DNA from: a virus
Lineage: Duplodnaviria > Heunggongvirae > Uroviricota > Caudoviricetes
IMG/VR virus record: IMGVR_UViG_3300046820_000635
DNA length: 28,687 nt
Reading direction: 5' to 3' (one strand)
A program made the translations under genes and the position numbers. Below, one piece after another: positions 6,758 through 24,272 of the stretch; within the stretch, counting starts at the first letter, position 1, and each line of letters starts with the position of its first letter. The notes beneath the pieces are model-generated. The model was not told where the DNA came from and searched no databases. It was given only the letters and a program-made list of their open reading frames with translations.

Positions 6758-7143
6758 TGGAATACGAAACAGGTAAGATTGACAAGGGCTGGGGATTTGA
6801 ACTGGCCTTTGCCAACAACGAAATGTACAGCGGCAAGCTATTGGTGTTTGAACGTGCGGGTGCAAAGACCAGTATGATGTTTCACAAGGAACGTTCTAAG
6901 ACTTGGTTCATTAACGAAGGTAAGTTTAAACTTACCTATATTGAGACAGTATCGGGTAAGGTATTAGAACATGTGCTTGAAGCAGGTGCAACAACTACTA
7001 TTTCTAAAATGAGTCCGCATCAAATAGAAGCACTGGAACCTAACTCAATCATCTTTGAAGTAGGCACAGGTGACGTTGGTAATACAGATCGTATTAGACT
7101 TGCACCTGGTGATACTCAAACGCAGACACTAGAGCAGCAATAA
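6757..7143 (+). CDS. Cupin-fold protein (mannose-6-phosphate-isomerase-like phage family)
   Basis: [17 protein letters not shown] pattern and a PHQIEALE second cupin motif; TAATG overlap with clpP. Confidence 0.7.
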
Positions 7144-8305
7144 GATCCTCGATCATTCCATCATCGTGTAACGGAGTAGGTACTAAACGTAACCGCTCCG
7201 TTCCCACATCAACTGTTGGAAAGTTTATCGCTTGGCAATAAATGTTATGTTCGTTCAATAGTGTATCGCTAATAGCCTTACACTTTTTAGCATCTCCTAC
7301 AAGCACTGGAACAATATGAGTAGTAGAACAATTCATTACGTGAATTCCATTCTTCTCTAATCTATGCTTTAACTTTCGAGCACGTTCTTGATGTTTCTCT
7401 CGTAGCTCGTTATGCTCTTTTAGATATTTGACAGCAGCAAGGGCGCCTGCACAGGTTACAGGGCTCATACTTGTTGTAAAAATGAATCCAGCAGCAACAC
7501 TGCGGATAGCATCTACAATATCTTTATCGGCAGCAATATAGCCACCTTGGACTCCGAAAGCTTTGCCTAGGGTACCATTGACTATGTCGACCCTATCTTG
7601 TAAGCCTAGCTCTTCTAGCTTACCACCGCCATGTTCTCCGTAGAGTCCTACTGCATGTACTTCGTCAATGTAGGTCATTGCTCCATACTTATCTGCTAGA
7701 TCGCATATCTCTTTGATGTGTCCTACATCACCGTCCATACTGTATACACTTTCAAAAACAATACACGGTACCTTGTTACACAGTTGAGCAGCTTTCAAAC
7801 AGTCTTCTAAGTTATCCATGTCGTTGTGTCTGAATACTTGTTTGCTTGCACGACTGTGACTCATACCAACAATTAAACTATTATGATTCTTACTGTCACT
7901 GATAAACTCAATATCTGGAATAATTTTAGCCAGTGAAATCAAAGTCCATTCATTCGCAACATAAGCACTGCTAAACAATAGAGAACCGCTCTTGCCATGC
8001 AACTGTGCAAGTTCGTATTCTAGGGCAACATGATAATGACTGGTACCTGCAATGTTACGTGTGCCACCTGATCCCGCCCCAGTCATGTCTAGGGCAGTAT
8101 GCATAGCATCTAGAACTACTTTGTTTTGGCCCATGCCTAGATAATCGTTTGAACACCAGTTTGTAATGTTCTTGATAGCGTAAGGCCCGTACCAAATGGC
8201 CTGAGGAAACTTACCATTTTCACGCAGAATATCGTTAAACACACGATATTTGCCTGTGTCTTTTAGATTTTTGATTAGGTCTGTAAAGGGTTTCTTGTTG
8301 ATCAT
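7094..8305 (-). CDS. hemA: 5-aminolevulinate synthase (PLP-dependent, Shemin/C4 pathway), 403 aa
   Basis: [51 protein letters not shown] (PLP lysine). Start re-called at ATG 8305. Confidence 0.92.
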
Positions 8306-8313
8306 AGTACGCA

Positions 8314-8329
8314 TATTTAAGCATAAATA
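8314..8329. promoter_or_regulatory. Back-to-back divergent TAAATA boxes (minus 8319-8314 for hemA; plus 8324-8329 for the 8349 operon)
   Basis: Sequence tatttaAGCAtaaata lies between divergent genes. Confidence 0.7.
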
Positions 8330-8348: not shown

Positions 8349-8753
8349 ATGGATATTGTACAGCTAGATGTACCGCTTTTTATTAGGCTTTTAGAACTAG
8401 CCCGCGAAGACATTAAACAAGATGCAGATATACACGATCTTGCGCAGAGAGTTATTGAGCTCAGCAAGAATGGTCCTGTAGACATGGCCAGCTACGATGA
8501 TCTAGTAGGATTTATGAACAAGCAGGGTAAGTCATCAATGAAAGATGAAGATTTTTATAATGATGATATTCGTAGATTCCGACAGATTGTTGATCTAGCA
8601 GACAAAGGTGAATACACCGAATACACAAATACTCCTAAAGAAGAGTATGCAGGTATTGAAAGTGTAACTACAGCAGCCGGTGGCGGCCCAAACGAGCCTA
8701 AACATGTAGATGATATTAGAGGCAGCAGTTTTAGAATACACGGGAGAAACTAA
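8349..8753 (+). CDS. Conserved phage hypothetical protein ([21 protein letters not shown]...), 134 aa
   Basis: GGAG SD at 8337-8340; start re-called at ATG 8349 so that it does not overlap hemA. Confidence 0.8.
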
Positions 8754-8959
8754 TGTCAGCTAACGGAATCTCAACACTAGCAACTAAAGAACTTAGACAA
8801 AAAGCCAAACTTGATTTAGCAGCAGCTGATCGTACAGCAGACGGAAATGCTAGACCTAACTATGATATTACGCAACTGCCAACTCAATACGACGACAACA
8901 GTCTAATAGATAATCCTAACTCGGGCGGATTGGTTTCCGGCCGTCCTTGGACAGCTTAA
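8753..8959 (+). CDS. Small hypothetical protein, possibly virion-associated (68 aa)
   Basis: TAATG coupling with the upstream gene; ends GLVSGRPW. Confidence 0.75.
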   Translation: MSANGISTLATKELRQKAKLDLAAADRTADGNARPNYDITQLPTQYDDNSLIDNPNSGGLVSGRPWTA

Positions 8960-8961
8960 TA

Positions 8962-10326
8962 ATGGCACAACAGTTAAACGCAGACGGCTCCCCGTATGAT
9001 CCACGACAGACTACCTCCGTCGGTGTTTCTGGGAATAACAGTACTAACTACGAGCATCCACAAGAAACTAATCTGCTGAACTTGCACAAGGCCATGGAGT
9101 ACAATGCTCTTGGTGAGCCACAACTTAGAGTCAAAACCAATCTCTACGAAAACTCCACAACCAGTAAACTGCGTCTCAAGATCAGCGACTACGAAACTGT
9201 GTTCTTCAATACCTTCCAATATGGCAAAGAAACTGACATCTGGGACGAACACACAGCCAACGGAGCATCCAGCACTTTTATGCCCAATATAAGTGCTGTG
9301 CAGATGACAGTCACCGGTCAAGTGGGCAGTGAGATCATTAGACAAACTCGCAATGCACAGAGATATATTCCCGGGCGTGAATCGGAACTGAGTTTTGCTG
9401 TGAACTTTGGCAATCACACCGCCGGTATACGACAGCGTATTGGTCTGTTTGATGAGCGTGATGGATTTTTCTTTGAACACGGTGCGGATGATGTCCTATA
9501 CTTTGTGATTAGATCTAGCACCACAGGATCACCGGTGGAAACTCGCGTGGCCCAGAGTCTGTGGAATGGTGATAGACTGGACGGCACTGGAGTCAGCGGC
9601 ATCACCCTAGATCTAACCAAACAACAGTTAATGGTCATAACCTACGAGTGGTACGGTGCCGGAGATGTAGAACTGGCCTTTGTTATCAACGGTGTCCGAA
9701 CCATTGCCCACACCTTTCGTAACAGCAACCTGCTTGCATCAGTATGGTGCACCACACCGTTCTTGCCCATTAGACTAGAGTTTACCAATGTTACAGGAGT
9801 TGCAGGCACACACACATTCAATCAAGGTAGCAACAGTCTAATCACAGAAGGCACCGCGGGCAAGTTGGGTATTGCACAGAACATCTCCACTCCCATCACA
9901 GGTAGAAGTGCGGGCTCGGCCAATACATTTATTCCTGCACTGAGTATTAGATTGAAAAGCACCAGCCTCAAAGGCATTGTGTTGCCCGCATTCTTTCAAG
10001 CAGCCACCCTGGACAACACCAATGTGCATTATCGGTTAGTGCGCAATGCCACACTCACAGGAGCCAGTTGGACAGATATGCCCGATGCTAACAGTTTCAC
10101 ACAGTATGATGTGTCTGCCACTGCATTATCGGGCGGCACTGATTTAGACAGCGGATTTGTGTCCAGCGGTGCACAGGGTCTAAAGATCACGTTAGACCAA
10201 AACACAGTGTATCAAATAGGCCGAGGCAGTATGGGCACAGTCAGCGACACACTAACATTGGCCATTGCCACTACCGTTGGTAATAAGAGCGTGGTTGGGT
10301 CAATGACCTGGATCGAACAGAGGTAA
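8962..10326 (+). CDS. Putative virion structural protein, beta-rich and Thr/Gly/Ser-rich (454 aa)
   Basis: Long ORF in a TAAATA-driven unit with a composition typical of beta-sandwich structural proteins; ATG 8962 follows the previous stop. Confidence 0.7.
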   Translation: MAQQLNADGSPYDPRQTTSVGVSGNNSTNYEHPQETNLLNLHKAMEYNALGEPQLRVKTNLYENSTTSKLRLKISDYETVFFNTFQYGKETDIWDEHTANGASSTFMPNISAVQMTVTGQVGSEIIRQTRNAQRYIPGRESELSFAVNFGNHTAGIRQRIGLFDERDGFFFEHGADDVLYFVIRSSTTGSPVETRVAQSLWNGDRLDGTGVSGITLDLTKQQLMVITYEWYGAGDVELAFVINGVRTIAHTFRNSNLLASVWCTTPFLPIRLEFTNVTGVAGTHTFNQGSNSLITEGTAGKLGIAQNISTPITGRSAGSANTFIPALSIRLKSTSLKGIVLPAFFQAATLDNTNVHYRLVRNATLTGASWTDMPDANSFTQYDVSATALSGGTDLDSGFVSSGAQGLKITLDQNTVYQIGRGSMGTVSDTLTLAIATTVGNKSVVGSMTWIEQR

Positions 10327-10330
10327 GATT

Positions 10331-10732
10331 ATGTATAGAAAATATATCAACATAGTAGAAGCAGCCAATAAGGGCTGTCCCATTGCCACACACGACTTGG
10401 AAGTAAATGTTAAAAATAGACAGGTTGGTATAGATAAACACCACTACGGACCTGCTAATCCAGACGAGCCGGGCGACTACTGGAAGGTAGCAGCCCGTCA
10501 ATGGGGCATTGATGAAAAGACTGCCAAGACTATGACCTGTGGTAACTGTTCTGCCTTTAACATCACGGACGAAATGTATAAGTGTATACATGATGGTATG
10601 GGAGAAGAAGCATATCAAGCGGAAAAGACTCGTGAAGCCGCTGACTTAGGTTACTGCAATCTATTGCATTTTAAATGTGCAGGCACACGTTCATGCGAAC
10701 TGTGGGTCACTGGCGGACCTATTGTAAAGTAA
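10331..10732 (+). CDS. Cys-rich protein with HiPIP-like cysteine spacing (133 aa)
   Basis: CGNCSAF ... GYC-x12-CELW resembles the HiPIP pattern CxNCxxF...GxC-x13-CxxW. The ORF is solid; the function is inferred. Confidence 0.6.
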   Translation: MYRKYINIVEAANKGCPIATHDLEVNVKNRQVGIDKHHYGPANPDEPGDYWKVAARQWGIDEKTAKTMTCGNCSAFNITDEMYKCIHDGMGEEAYQAEKTREAADLGYCNLLHFKCAGTRSCELWVTGGPIVK

Positions 10733-10742
10733 GGAGCAAACT

Positions 10743-10901
10743 ATGGATCAAGATGATAAAACATATCAAAGATTAAAACCTAAATGTCAGTGTTGGTGTA
10801 CAGGACACTGCGGATCAAGCTGTATGACAGATGACTGCGACTGCAACGAATGCAGTTGTTCCGATTGTTTAGATAAAAATGTCCAACGTGATCATAACTG
10901 A
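10743..10901 (+). CDS. Metallothionein-like peptide, 52 aa, 10 Cys (absent from the ORF track)
   Basis: Translation by hand gives MDQDDKTYQRLKPKCQCWCTGHCGSSCMTDDCDCNECSCSDCLDKNVQRDHN. AAGGAG SD at 10731-10736, 6 nt before the ATG. Confidence 0.8.
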   Translation: MDQDDKTYQRLKPKCQCWCTGHCGSSCMTDDCDCNECSCSDCLDKNVQRDHN

Positions 10902-11520
10902 CAGTAAGTTTGACGCCAACGGCTATTGGGACAAACCTGTAGAAAAAATAGTTTATCTGCCTACAGCAGAAGACGTTGCTCTATTTGATCAAAATGGCTA
11001 CGATCTAACTGATTTAGAAAAGCATTATGCCTATAGCAACTGGAACAAGCCCAAGAAACATAGAGAACATCGTACAGCGCTTAAACAGTCTTGGTTCGTA
11101 CAAGACTACACTGTAGAAGGTGCTGTTCTTAATCACAGTCTACTATTTGAACGTAAAGGGTACACAGGTGCTGCACTAGAAGAACTGCAATACTGGGCAC
11201 GATCTTTACCTTTAATACATAAAGTTATTGCACTTCGCCCTAAATGGGGATTGGACTTTAGCATGGACTGGGCCGATACCAACGGCAATGCTTTTGAAGT
11301 CCTACATTGGGAGTGGGATAGTTTCAACTACGAAGAAATATGCGCAGTTAAAGAAACTATTGAACCTATCTTGTTAGCTATGGATTGGCAGGATGCAGGA
11401 CAGAATATCCTGGCTAAGAAAGATCAATGGTACCATCTAGACTTCTTTGGACAGAGCCGATGGAAATGTGAATACTTTGGTATTCCAGAAGAAAGATTTA
11501 AAATGGTTGCTTGGAAATAA
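10879..11520 (+). CDS. Conserved phage hypothetical protein (213 aa)
   Basis: ORF track; globular, aromatic-rich sequence (FDQNGYDLT, WGLDFSMDW). The exact start is uncertain. Confidence 0.8.
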   Translation: MSNVIITDSKFDANGYWDKPVEKIVYLPTAEDVALFDQNGYDLTDLEKHYAYSNWNKPKKHREHRTALKQSWFVQDYTVEGAVLNHSLLFERKGYTGAALEELQYWARSLPLIHKVIALRPKWGLDFSMDWADTNGNAFEVLHWEWDSFNYEEICAVKETIEPILLAMDWQDAGQNILAKKDQWYHLDFFGQSRWKCEYFGIPEERFKMVAWK

Positions 11521-12843: not shown

Positions 12844-14033
12844 AACTCAAACAACTAATAGTAGAAGCCAATGTAGCTTCAAAGGTCTTGAAAGACCCTA
12901 AGATGACTAAGATGTTAGCCATCGCATTTAGACATGACAATACATTACCCAAGTCTGCGATTGCTAAGTTAGGTCCACGCCCAACTGATCAAGAAGCTGT
13001 TACACTCTGGAGTGAGTTAATAGACGGTGTATTGAGTAATAACACCTATGGCGATCTCAGCAGAGATGGTAAGTTCGACGACTGGCTATTAAGACAGTAT
13101 GTCAACGGTATTGCAGACTATGAAGATATCAGCGGAGAAGGTGGAGATGCACTAGGTGCATGGAAAGCTCTAAGCACCCGCGGCAAACTAAAGCCTGCTG
13201 ATCAAGACTTTAATAAGTTTAAGAGCATAAAACAGTTGCAGCGTATTCGAAACGATAGACAGTATCGTCAAGAACTAGACCGTATCAAGGATCAAGAACA
13301 CATTGAAAGAATGAAACGTGAAGCCAAAGAAGTTGTTATTATTGACAACGACCGCTTCCGTGTTATTGTTCCTTTGAACTACGGTAGCTGCTATTCTACA
13401 GACAAGTCCGGCGGATACATTCCTAACTTCTGTACAGGATCTAGCAGTGGAGCGCAATGGTTTGGTCGTTATGCACCAGACGGTATGATCGTTAACGTTG
13501 TTGATAAGTCAAACATTGAAGATGTTGACGGTAAGTGGCAGTTCCATGCTGCAACCAATCAGCTTGTTCGTGGTGACCAAGAACGTAGACACGACATTCC
13601 CTATAACGATAGACGCTTTGCTGAGTTGTTCCCGGGCCTTATGAAAGATATCATTTCCGGAATACAGGCCAAAGGCGAAGAGATCAAAAGCGGTTCGACG
13701 GAGATTGTTCCGGGCGGATACGACATTGCCAAAGAGATTGATCTGATCAAAGGCAAGTATCCTTTATCAGTTGCATCCGGTGAAAAGGATGAAGATCCTG
13801 AACAGCAAGACGAGCCACAACAAGAGCCAGAGCAGGACCAGCCACAACAGCAAGACGAGCCACAACAAGAGCCAGAGCAGGAACAACCTGCAATGAGAAC
13901 TTTTAATGTAACTCAACTTGCTAGCGGCAGATCCGCTCGTATCGAAGCTAGAGACTTAGCACATGTTCAACAGCGTGTATTGCAACGCTACCCCAATTCT
14001 ACAATCGACGATTATACGTGGGAAGAGGTTTAA
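12840..14033 (+). CDS. Hypothetical protein with a Q/E/P repeat linker, possibly virion-internal (397 aa)
   Basis: ORF track; N-terminus MKLKQLIVEA; acidic repeat linker before a short C-terminal domain. Confidence 0.85.
   Translation: MKLKQLIVEANVASKVLKDPKMTKMLAIAFRHDNTLPKSAIAKLGPRPTDQEAVTLWSELIDGVLSNNTYGDLSRDGKFDDWLLRQYVNGIADYEDISGEGGDALGAWKALSTRGKLKPADQDFNKFKSIKQLQRIRNDRQYRQELDRIKDQEHIERMKREAKEVVIIDNDRFRVIVPLNYGSCYSTDKSGGYIPNFCTGSSSGAQWFGRYAPDGMIVNVVDKSNIEDVDGKWQFHAATNQLVRGDQERRHDIPYNDRRFAELFPGLMKDIISGIQAKGEEIKSGSTEIVPGGYDIAKEIDLIKGKYPLSVASGEKDEDPEQQDEPQQEPEQDQPQQQDEPQQEPEQEQPAMRTFNVTQLASGRSARIEARDLAHVQQRVLQRYPNSTIDDYTWEEV
13801..13882 (+). repeat. In-frame tandem duplication: 37-nt exact repeat with 45-nt period (QQDEPQQEPEQ x2)
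   Basis: aacagcaagacgagccacaacaagagccagagcagga occurs at 13801-13837 and 13846-13882. Confidence 0.95.
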
Positions 14034-14141: not shown

Positions 14142-14166
14142 AAAAAGCCCCTTTCGGGGCTTTTTT
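14142..14166. terminator. Bidirectional intrinsic terminator
   Basis: AAAAAGCCCC-TTTC-GGGGCTTTTT between convergent transcription units. Confidence 0.92.
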
Positions 14167-14854
14167 ATGACTTGAACAAGTACTTCTTATGTAAATGTAA
14201 TCTTGCTTGATTGTACTGAACAGCAGTGATAACTAACGCTGCGGCCCAAGGTACTACAGCAGCAGCCCAAGATGCTAGTCCTGCCCACCAAGCAACTAAC
14301 AGGGGTTCTTTCATTAACATTAAGAACGCAACAGCAAATAATACAAACGATCCAACAAACACAGTATCTGGCCAACGTTGTAAAATCTTGCTGACTAATG
14401 TAGCACCAAACAGGATGATTGGTACACTGATCAATAGACCGGCAATGATTAGTACAAAGTTTCCATTAGCGGCAGCGGCAATACCTAGTGCGTTATCGAT
14501 CCCCATAACAGCATCAGCAACAACAATAGTACCTATAGCACCCCAGAACGTATCTTTGGCTTCGATATTATGTTCGCCTGAATCAAACACAAGTTTCCAA
14601 CCAATCCACACAAGTGCTGCCGCACCAATAGCACGTAGGCCCGGAATCATTAACAAGTAGGTTAGCGCCGCAACTGATACAAAGCGTATAGCAATGGCAC
14701 CAAAGGTACCCCAGAAGATTGCCTTCTTACGTAAGTGATCCGGTAGTTTATTAGCCGCCATTCCGATAACAAGAGCATTATCACCAGCTAATACAATGTC
14801 TATCAATATGATAGCAAGAAATGCCCAGAGGGCTTGAATCGAAAATAACTCCAT
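14165..14854 (-). CDS. terC: TerC/Alx-family (YjbE-like) membrane protein, probable Mn2+ homeostasis (229 aa)
   Basis: IILIDIVLAGDNALVI and ADAVMGIDNALGIAAAA (the paired TerC metal motifs), multiple TM helices; AAGGAG SD at 14866-14861. Start re-called at ATG 14854. Confidence 0.92.
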   Translation of the reverse strand: MELFSIQALWAFLAIILIDIVLAGDNALVIGMAANKLPDHLRKKAIFWGTFGAIAIRFVSVAALTYLLMIPGLRAIGAAALVWIGWKLVFDSGEHNIEAKDTFWGAIGTIVVADAVMGIDNALGIAAAANGNFVLIIAGLLISVPIILFGATLVSKILQRWPDTVFVGSFVLFAVAFLMLMKEPLLVAWWAGLASWAAAVVPWAAALVITAVQYNQARLHLHKKYLFKS

Positions 14855-15836: not shown

Positions 15837-16541
15837 ATGAATACAATATTAGCAACTCTAGTAATGACGCACATTACTATTATCTGCGTGACCCTGTTTT
15901 TACATAGATCACAAACACATAAAGGTGTGACCTTTCACCCAATAGTCAATCACTTTTTTAGATTATGGTTATGGCTCACAACAGGTATGGTTACCAAACA
16001 ATGGGTAGCAATACATCGTAAGCATCATAGGTACAGTGATAATCCCGGTGATCCTCACAGTCCTAGCGTCTACGGAATATTTAGAGTCCTGTTCAAAGGG
16101 GCAGGTTTGTATCACGCTGCCAGCAAAGACACTGAGATGATAAAACAGTACGGAGTAGGTACTCCGGACGATTGGCTAGAGCGCCGAGTTTATACTCCAC
16201 ATAGTCGGTTAGGGATCATAATCATGTTGATCATAGACCTTGTTCTTTTTGGCCCGATAGGTTTAATAGTGTGGGGTATACAAATGTTATGGATACCCTT
16301 TTGGGCAGCAGGAGTAATAAATGGAGTCGGACACTGGACAGGTTATATTAATGGTAATTCAAAAGATAATAGTCGCAATATTAGTCCTATTGGTATTATT
16401 ATTGGTGGCGAAGAACTTCATAACAATCATCACTTAGATCCTGCAAGTCCTAAGTTAAGCAGACGTTGGTTTGAGTTTGACATTGGCTGGTTCTATATTA
16501 AACTTCTAGAACGATTTAAGTTAGCAACTATTCGACCATAA
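15837..16541 (+). CDS. Membrane fatty-acid (acyl-CoA delta-9-like) desaturase, 234 aa
   Basis: Three His boxes HRSQTH, HRKHH and HNNHH, plus GEELHNNHH and WFEFDIGW. Start re-called at ATG 15837. Confidence 0.92.
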   Translation: MNTILATLVMTHITIICVTLFLHRSQTHKGVTFHPIVNHFFRLWLWLTTGMVTKQWVAIHRKHHRYSDNPGDPHSPSVYGIFRVLFKGAGLYHAASKDTEMIKQYGVGTPDDWLERRVYTPHSRLGIIIMLIIDLVLFGPIGLIVWGIQMLWIPFWAAGVINGVGHWTGYINGNSKDNSRNISPIGIIIGGEELHNNHHLDPASPKLSRRWFEFDIGWFYIKLLERFKLATIRP

Positions 16542-23620: not shown

Positions 23621-23892
23621 AATTTTTCGATATTACCAACGAAAGTGATTTTCTAAAAATCAGAGAGTTGGCTCCTGCTATGGCTCCCGCTGGTCCGGGA
23701 GTTGCTCCAACAGCCCCTGGTGCAGCACCTGCACCCGGAGTACAACCCGTCGTTGATCCGGCAGCACAGGCTAAGATGGCAGCAGCACAGGCCAAGGATC
23801 TAATGGATAGAAAGAAACAGGTACAAGATCAGATCAAACAAACTGAACAACAGTTGCAAGATCTAAGAAAACAACTGGCAGAACTAGGATGA
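23617..23892 (+). CDS. Pro/Ala-rich protein with a C-terminal coiled coil (91 aa)
   Basis: ATGA overlaps at both ends. Confidence 0.8.
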   Translation: MKFFDITNESDFLKIRELAPAMAPAGPGVAPTAPGAAPAPGVQPVVDPAAQAKMAAAQAKDLMDRKKQVQDQIKQTEQQLQDLRKQLAELG

Positions 23893-24272
23893 GAATATTT
23901 GAGTTTGCAGATAGAGGCGTTGAGAAATATATTATTGTTCTCAGAAACCTTATTGGCCGTGCTTCTAGTAGAAAAGCTCCAGCTAAATTAAACTGGGGCG
24001 GTCTTAATAGACTTGTTGGATCTACCGGTAATGAAGTTACAGCTGACTATGAAACATTCAAAGCCATGTACGACTCAACACCTGCATTACAAACTCTTGT
24101 AAAAGATTTTAATCAAAACGGTATTGAACTCAACGTGCCCGGAGCTCCGGAAGAAGCTCCAAAAGCTAGCGGTACAGCACAACCTCAAGACAGTCAAGCA
24201 GCAGTTGATCAAACAGCAGCATCGGCAGCAGCCGGACAGTTAGCACAAAGCCAAACTACTCCCCAGGTTTGA
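23889..24272 (+). CDS. Hypothetical protein (127 aa)
   Basis: ATGA overlap with the upstream gene; Ala/Gln-rich tail. Confidence 0.8.
   Translation: MRIFEFADRGVEKYIIVLRNLIGRASSRKAPAKLNWGGLNRLVGSTGNEVTADYETFKAMYDSTPALQTLVKDFNQNGIELNVPGAPEEAPKASGTAQPQDSQAAVDQTAASAAAGQLAQSQTTPQV

Follow-up and report, generated by a model that had tools for sequence, protein, structure and literature searches.

A 52-amino-acid cysteine-rich phage protein, probably a phage-specific zinc-storage protein of a new metallothionein-like kind

The DNA analyzed here, a 28,687-nucleotide stretch (referred to below as the window) from IMG/VR record IMGVR_UViG_3300046820_000635, is part of a large phage carrying genes for a ligase, ClpP, ribonucleotide reductase, 5-aminolevulinate (ALA) synthase, a desaturase, a nuclease, and virion proteins (some of these names come from reading the sequences). 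At positions 10743 to 10901 on the plus strand lies an ATG-to-TGA frame encoding a micro-protein of 52 amino acids (aa). A Shine-Dalgarno (SD) sequence, TAAGGAG (10730 to 10736, plus strand), overlaps the TAA that ends the upstream gene and stands 6 nt 5' of the ATG, in agreement with the small frame and strong SD given in a preliminary description of this DNA. The upstream gene (10331 to 10732, plus strand) encodes a 133-aa HiPIP-like protein with four Cys, and the 3' end of the micro-gene shares 23 nt (10879 to 10901, plus strand) with the start of a gene for a conserved 213-aa protein (10879 to 11520, plus strand). Other genes in the window encode an aminotransferase resembling ALA synthase, for which 240 viral relatives were found (7094 to 8308, minus strand), a putative metal transporter of the YjbE/TerC family (14165 to 14851, minus strand), and a DesA-family desaturase (15843 to 16541, plus strand). 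The products of the genes at 10331, 12840, 18252, 19293, 23617, and 23889 (all plus strand) have short N termini that we take to resemble T4 capsid-targeting sequences; that of the micro-gene has none.

T4 late promoters have the hexamer TAAATA at their core. In 17 of 24 cases it lay no more than 70 nt from the start of a gene (P of about 3e-17, using a hand-made list of starts). The copy nearest upstream of the micro-gene, a predicted T4-type late promoter at 8324 to 8329 on the plus strand, heads a run of genes from 8349 to 11520 comprising two small genes, a virion protein gene (phrog_1645), the HiPIP-like gene, the micro-gene, and the 213-aa gene. At 8319 to 8329, TAAATA motifs on opposite strands stand back to back, one heading the ALA synthase gene (minus strand) and the other this island operon (plus strand). 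Seven of 55 relatives have TAAATA less than 80 nt from the micro-gene itself. From these motifs we infer that the micro-gene is expressed late; it does not follow that its product is packaged, as auxiliary genes such as that for ALA synthase carry the same TAAATA.

The ten Cys and one His within 28 residues described previously were all located in the translation, with Cys at positions 15, 17, 19, 23, 27, 32, 34, 37, 39, and 42 and His at position 22. These eleven candidate metal ligands (codons 15 to 42; 10785 to 10868, plus strand) are arranged as C-x-C-x-[C/H]-x2-H-C-x3-C-x4-C-x-C-x2-C-x-C-x2-C. Cys makes up 19% of the whole micro-protein and 36% of this core, in which Trp18 and Met28 are the only bulky hydrophobic residues and the net charge is -5.

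Ten Cys in 28 residues did not arise in any of 200 dinucleotide-shuffled versions of the window. The real window, however, holds three minus-strand shadow frames (13604 to 13912, 23656 to 23799, and 24090 to 24239), one with 12 and two with 9 Cys in 28 residues, lying opposite Gln/Pro/Ala-rich genes (a Gln/Pro repeat in the case of 13604 to 13912). These frames are probably false metallothionein look-alikes; thus, Cys density is insufficient as evidence for a gene, and their presence in the same window favors the alternative that the micro-ORF is itself noncoding, either a shadow frame or a product of chance. It is conservation among relatives that shows it to be a real gene. Using the single sequence as the query, 25 viral loci were matched, and 87 were matched with an alignment, while 1.84 billion representatives searched with a profile gave 38 clusters at 50% identity. 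The family collected comprises 151 different motif-bearing proteins of 47 to 76 aa with 9 to 12 Cys, so that the conservation in related phages proposed earlier as a check was seen in about 150 different relatives, with the Cys kept. Those relatives whose DNA contexts were inspected are large T4-like phages, and the best-matching source data sets are freshwater metagenomes. No RNA data set was among the matching ones listed, and the DNA contigs spanning the micro-ORF in one sample, possibly that of origin, add no independent support.

Across 56 distinct DNA sequences the ten Cys and His22 were invariant, and the Cys codons at every position were a mixture of TGT and TGC. Over codons 8 to 44, pN/pS was 0.015 relative to the nearest relative and 0.20 when pooled, with pS near saturation in the latter case. 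The micro-gene is under purifying selection. An SD-like element is kept 5 to 9 nt ahead of the start in most relatives, and ATG, GTG, and TTG interchange as start codons at an unchanged position. Together with the prevalence of synonymous changes in this frame and the relocation of the gene as a unit, these observations speak against a noncoding origin, which the pN/pS analysis effectively refutes and to which we attach a negligible probability. Judged from these comparisons, the micro-ORF is a real gene. The conserved C-terminal tail of its product is probably a consequence of the 23 nt shared with the beginning of the 213-aa gene; as a relic, it persists in relatives where that gene has moved or is gone.

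To describe the ligand pattern across the family, a set of 95 distinct proteins was used, for which the search had placed no constraint on position 19 or on the last three Cys. All eleven ligand positions were kept in 94 of the 95 (as ten Cys and one His or nine Cys and two His), the only exception being P0009, which is apparently frameshifted. Ligand spacing was identical in 84 of these proteins, and the core of the family as a whole can be written C-x(1-2)-C-x-[C/H]-x2-H-C-x3-C-x(2-7)-C-x(1-2)-C-x2-C-x-C-x2-C. Position 19 was Cys in 84 of the 95 and His in 11, with no other residue found. On a tree of 138 cores, which is poorly resolved as it has only 50 columns, the state at this position changed about five times (4 to 6 in bootstrap replicates), and at least two of the changes are forced by well-supported branches. 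An odd count of nine Cys was found in 36 of the 151 members. Four proteins with His at position 19 (P0025, P0100, P0101, and P0102) form a subfamily whose C terminus is extended by a conserved acidic stretch of about 16 residues. P0005 and P0069 are single fusions on short contigs, one with an N-terminal extension resembling a capsid-targeting sequence and the other with an M23 peptidase-like domain, and may be assembly chimeras.

The exchange of Cys for His bears directly on whether the thiols bind metal or pair with each other. The even count of ten Cys in the commonest form and the small size of the protein would suit a disulfide-bonded peptide of the toxin or bacteriocin type. However, replacing a Cys with His keeps a ligand but breaks a disulfide, leaving nine Cys, and for this reason metal ligation is favored over disulfides. 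Furthermore, no signal-peptide-like N terminus was found among the 151 members, the core is acidic (mean charge of -3.7), and CxC and adjacent His-Cys motifs are present, all of which make a disulfide-bonded peptide very improbable. From its ligand pattern, the micro-protein is very likely a metal-cluster protein of some kind.

Outside the ligands the family varies considerably. Non-ligand residues and both termini diverge widely, with a mean column identity of 32%; the core contains about 2.6 bulky hydrophobic residues on average, and its longest ligand-free gap is at most 4 residues in 148 of 151 cases. A Tyr-x-Arg motif ahead of the core is partly conserved (Tyr in 28 and Arg in 24 of 41 members), and Tyr8, Arg10, Gly24, and Ser26 are partly conserved in the profile-found set. 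The apparent invariance of Ser26, Met28, Thr29, and Asp30 in the first set was an artifact of the search pattern, as these positions vary in the profile-found set. An AlphaFold (AF2) model of low confidence (pLDDT of 63, pTM of 0.30) has nearly no secondary structure, with one short helix, which would fit the metal-dependent folding expected of metallothioneins (PMC3323870).

Many small phage effectors act by binding a host or phage protein. The micro-protein could likewise be a compact multi-zinc structural mini-domain, in which the cluster holds the fold and an N-terminal Tyr-x-Arg-(Leu/Tyr) motif and an acidic surface bind a host or phage partner. The partly conserved positions named above, a ligand spacing more rigid than in most metallothioneins, a single copy per genome (as seen in records of 212 kb and 280 kb), and an apparent lack of metal regulation are consistent with this alternative, and the Tyr-x-Arg motif could mark a partner-binding surface. 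Against it stand the lack of a hydrophobic core or of a gap of zinc-finger length, the drift of the non-ligand residues and termini, and the fact that conservation at the C terminus is accounted for by gene overlap. The acidic core is also unlike that of a DNA binder, and the published consensus of CXC domains, CX[C/H]X2-13CX4-7CXCX5-60CX2-4CX1-2CX2-15CXN (PMC3447885), was matched by none of the 151 members. A structural mini-domain is therefore considered unlikely, and a metallothionein-like protein is preferred.

To identify whether the micro-gene has fixed partners, its neighbors were compared across loci. The HiPIP-like gene and the 213-aa gene each adjoin it in 21 of 56 loci. The HiPIP-like protein has no export signal and is 44% identical to a protein of phage DSL-LC01 annotated as "high potential iron-sulfur protein," the gene for which adjoins capsid maturation protease genes; a true HiPIP identity found no support in Pfam or the PDB. 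The 213-aa protein is strongly conserved, with many invariant polar and aromatic residues and a confident model (pLDDT of 87), and has a distant relative (27% identity) in Ralstonia phage RsoM2USA; no family was assigned to it, and a fold search of the PDB gave no match (best Z of 3.3). When islands were defined by an independent anchor, ALA synthase, 10 of 15 clusters contained the micro-gene. An obligate partnership was rejected in this small sample of 15 islands for the 213-aa gene (Fisher P of 0.25), the HiPIP-like gene (P of 0.61), and family F16 (P of 0.56).

Distant members occupy quite different sites. On a 232-kb contig, a member with the second His lies between genes for Cu/Zn-superoxide dismutase (SOD) and IscA/HesB (L141:4374-5463); radical SAM, cytochrome c-like, and IF-1-like genes are also found near this locus. 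Another distant member follows nrdA and precedes a sulfotransferase-like gene, IscU, and IscA, a third lies between nrdA and a thioredoxin-family gene, and that at L133 has IscA genes on both flanks. A further member is located among T4-like neck genes (gp13 to gp15) with no metal gene beside it, and several other sites likewise have no metal-gene neighbors. As these sites are unrelated and have no fixed partner, the micro-gene acts as a stand-alone accessory gene that can move. Metal- and redox-related neighbors at some of these sites are no more than suggestive. No metal-sensing regulator was recognized among the clustered neighbors, which are only partly annotated.

Such surroundings could point to a Cu(I) sink, a thiol redox shield, or a holder of iron or Fe-S, by which iron-sulfur biogenesis and ribonucleotide reduction would be protected or fed during infection, rather than to a zinc store. 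IscA or IscU genes lie beside the micro-gene at three unrelated sites, nrdA at two, and Cu/Zn-SOD at one, in addition to the frequently adjoining HiPIP-like gene, and thiolate clusters have a higher affinity for soft ions such as Cu(I) than for Zn (PMC3323870). However, the HiPIP-like gene and the micro-gene do not co-occur significantly, and accessory genes cluster in the same regions of these phages anyway. The invariant His and the repeated gain of a second His favor tetrahedral Zn, and His ligands raise the relative affinity for Zn (PMC3323870). A copper, redox, or Fe-S role thus appears improbable, and zinc remains the preferred metal.

No family model in Pfam, PHROGs, or NCBIfam matched the micro-protein. 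A weak match to PF12749 in 2 of 41 members (best E of 0.007) was not accepted. A sequence profile search of the PDB gave no match at an E of ≤10, searches for similar folds, in which the low-confidence model was used, yielded nothing or weak matches and gave no evidence for a new fold, and feature matches in the ESM Atlas (0.80 to 0.82) were to unnamed clusters and serve as leads only. No cellular homolog was found in GTDB by peptide pattern, and a DNA pattern scan for such homologs produced shadow-frame noise among the 120 matches listed. GenBank phages gave no match (a low-complexity filter may mask the query), and phages RsoM2USA, BUDD, and DSL-LC01 contained no member by profile. On the evidence of these searches, the family is apparently phage restricted.

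The closest parallels are to be sought among small metal-cluster proteins. SmtA, which binds metal as Zn4Cys9His2 (PMC10119931), and its relatives in the SmtA/BmtA family (PF02069) are of about 50 to 56 aa, have eleven mixed Cys and His ligands, and are encoded by small ORFs that are easily missed. The phage proteins with a second His have exactly nine Cys and two His, a likeness in count only. However, no sequence match exists: PF02069 matched 0 of 41 members at an E of ≤1, in line with the earlier remark that the spacing is unlike that of SmtA. The phage ligands, packed into 28 residues, stand too close together to accommodate the zinc-finger site of SmtA with its hairpin and helix (residues 7 to 38, with a long ligand-free segment; PMC3323870). 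SmtB/Zur control was not recognized for the micro-gene, which is phage encoded and predicted to be late. By sequence, then, the micro-protein is not a BmtA/SmtA member.

The alpha-domain of vertebrate metallothioneins (M4Cys11 in mammals; PMC3447885) likewise places eleven ligands within about 30 residues and uses CxC and CxxC motifs, and it has little secondary structure, as does the low-confidence model of the phage protein; the phage protein differs in its His and Trp/Tyr residues, its acidity, its single domain, and the lack of a match to PF00131. The Zn3Cys9 domains of the CXC and pre-SET types (MSL2, tesmin, and EZH2) are also small, with many invariant Cys, an occasional His ligand, and fixed spacing. 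Compared with these, the phage protein is stand-alone, acidic, and shorter, has no terminal CxN, and matches no Pfam CXC/TCR model. MymT, the mycobacterial Cu(I) metallothionein, is encoded by a tiny Cys/His-rich ORF that was long missed by annotation; it apparently differs in having fewer Cys and another spacing, and the phage protein gave no match to its family. The phage micro-proteins apparently constitute an undescribed metallothionein-like family with a distinctive eleven-ligand motif.

Weighing the sequence evidence, we put the probability that the micro-protein is a metallothionein-like zinc buffer or donor at about 0.55; it is probably a phage-specific zinc-storage protein, a metallothionein of a new kind. 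The anatomical part of the metallothionein-like assignment in the preliminary description stands, as the protein is small and Cys rich, with CxC and CxxC motifs, eleven constant ligands, and repeated Cys/His exchange; its functional part is a matter of this probability. One criterion by which a protein is counted as a functional metallothionein is that metal induces it (PMC3323870), and the fact that no metal-responsive regulator was recognized among the neighbors counts against this reading.

A zinc buffer or donor of this type would be a stand-alone cytoplasmic micro-protein, synthesized in the late phase of infection and under no metal control of its own, whose 28-residue core would fold around a cluster of divalent metal, likeliest Zn(II). 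Ten thiolates and one His would bind three to four such ions, with nine thiolates and two His doing so in the variants. Four tetrahedral ions have 16 sites to be filled by 11 ligands, which would call for five bridging thiolates; alternatively, three ions would need one bridge. The count of eleven is the same as that in SmtA (Zn4Cys9His2) and in the vertebrate alpha-domain (Zn4Cys11/M4Cys11). Zn, and Cd or Cu if present, would be taken up and then released on demand or on oxidation, so that free metal would be kept low and phage metalloenzymes supplied or shielded. Tentatively, and with less confidence than for a zinc buffer or donor as such, the family could be a class of metallothionein that evolved in phages and is confined to viruses, in which a minimal cluster of 28 residues (Cys10His or Cys9His2) would hold four metal ions, having converged with SmtA and the vertebrate alpha-domain. 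Large freshwater phages might express it late to take over the zinc and copper pools of the host, supplying or protecting SOD, Fe-S, and ribonucleotide reductase enzymes of their own.

Few prokaryotic metallothioneins have been characterized; a 2022 count of UniProt gave six prokaryotic entries, representing three species (PMC11705764). Subscription journals aside, no paper on a "viral metallothionein" was found, and metallothioneins as phage auxiliary genes appeared only in passing, in annotation-level mentions. If the family is instead a structural zinc domain, it would be one more small phage effector family. A 28-residue cluster that can be synthesized, with natural Cys-to-His variants, lends itself to studies of metal selectivity. 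If the metallothionein reading is true, this phage-specific family would mean that viruses manipulate host metal pools with chelators of their own.
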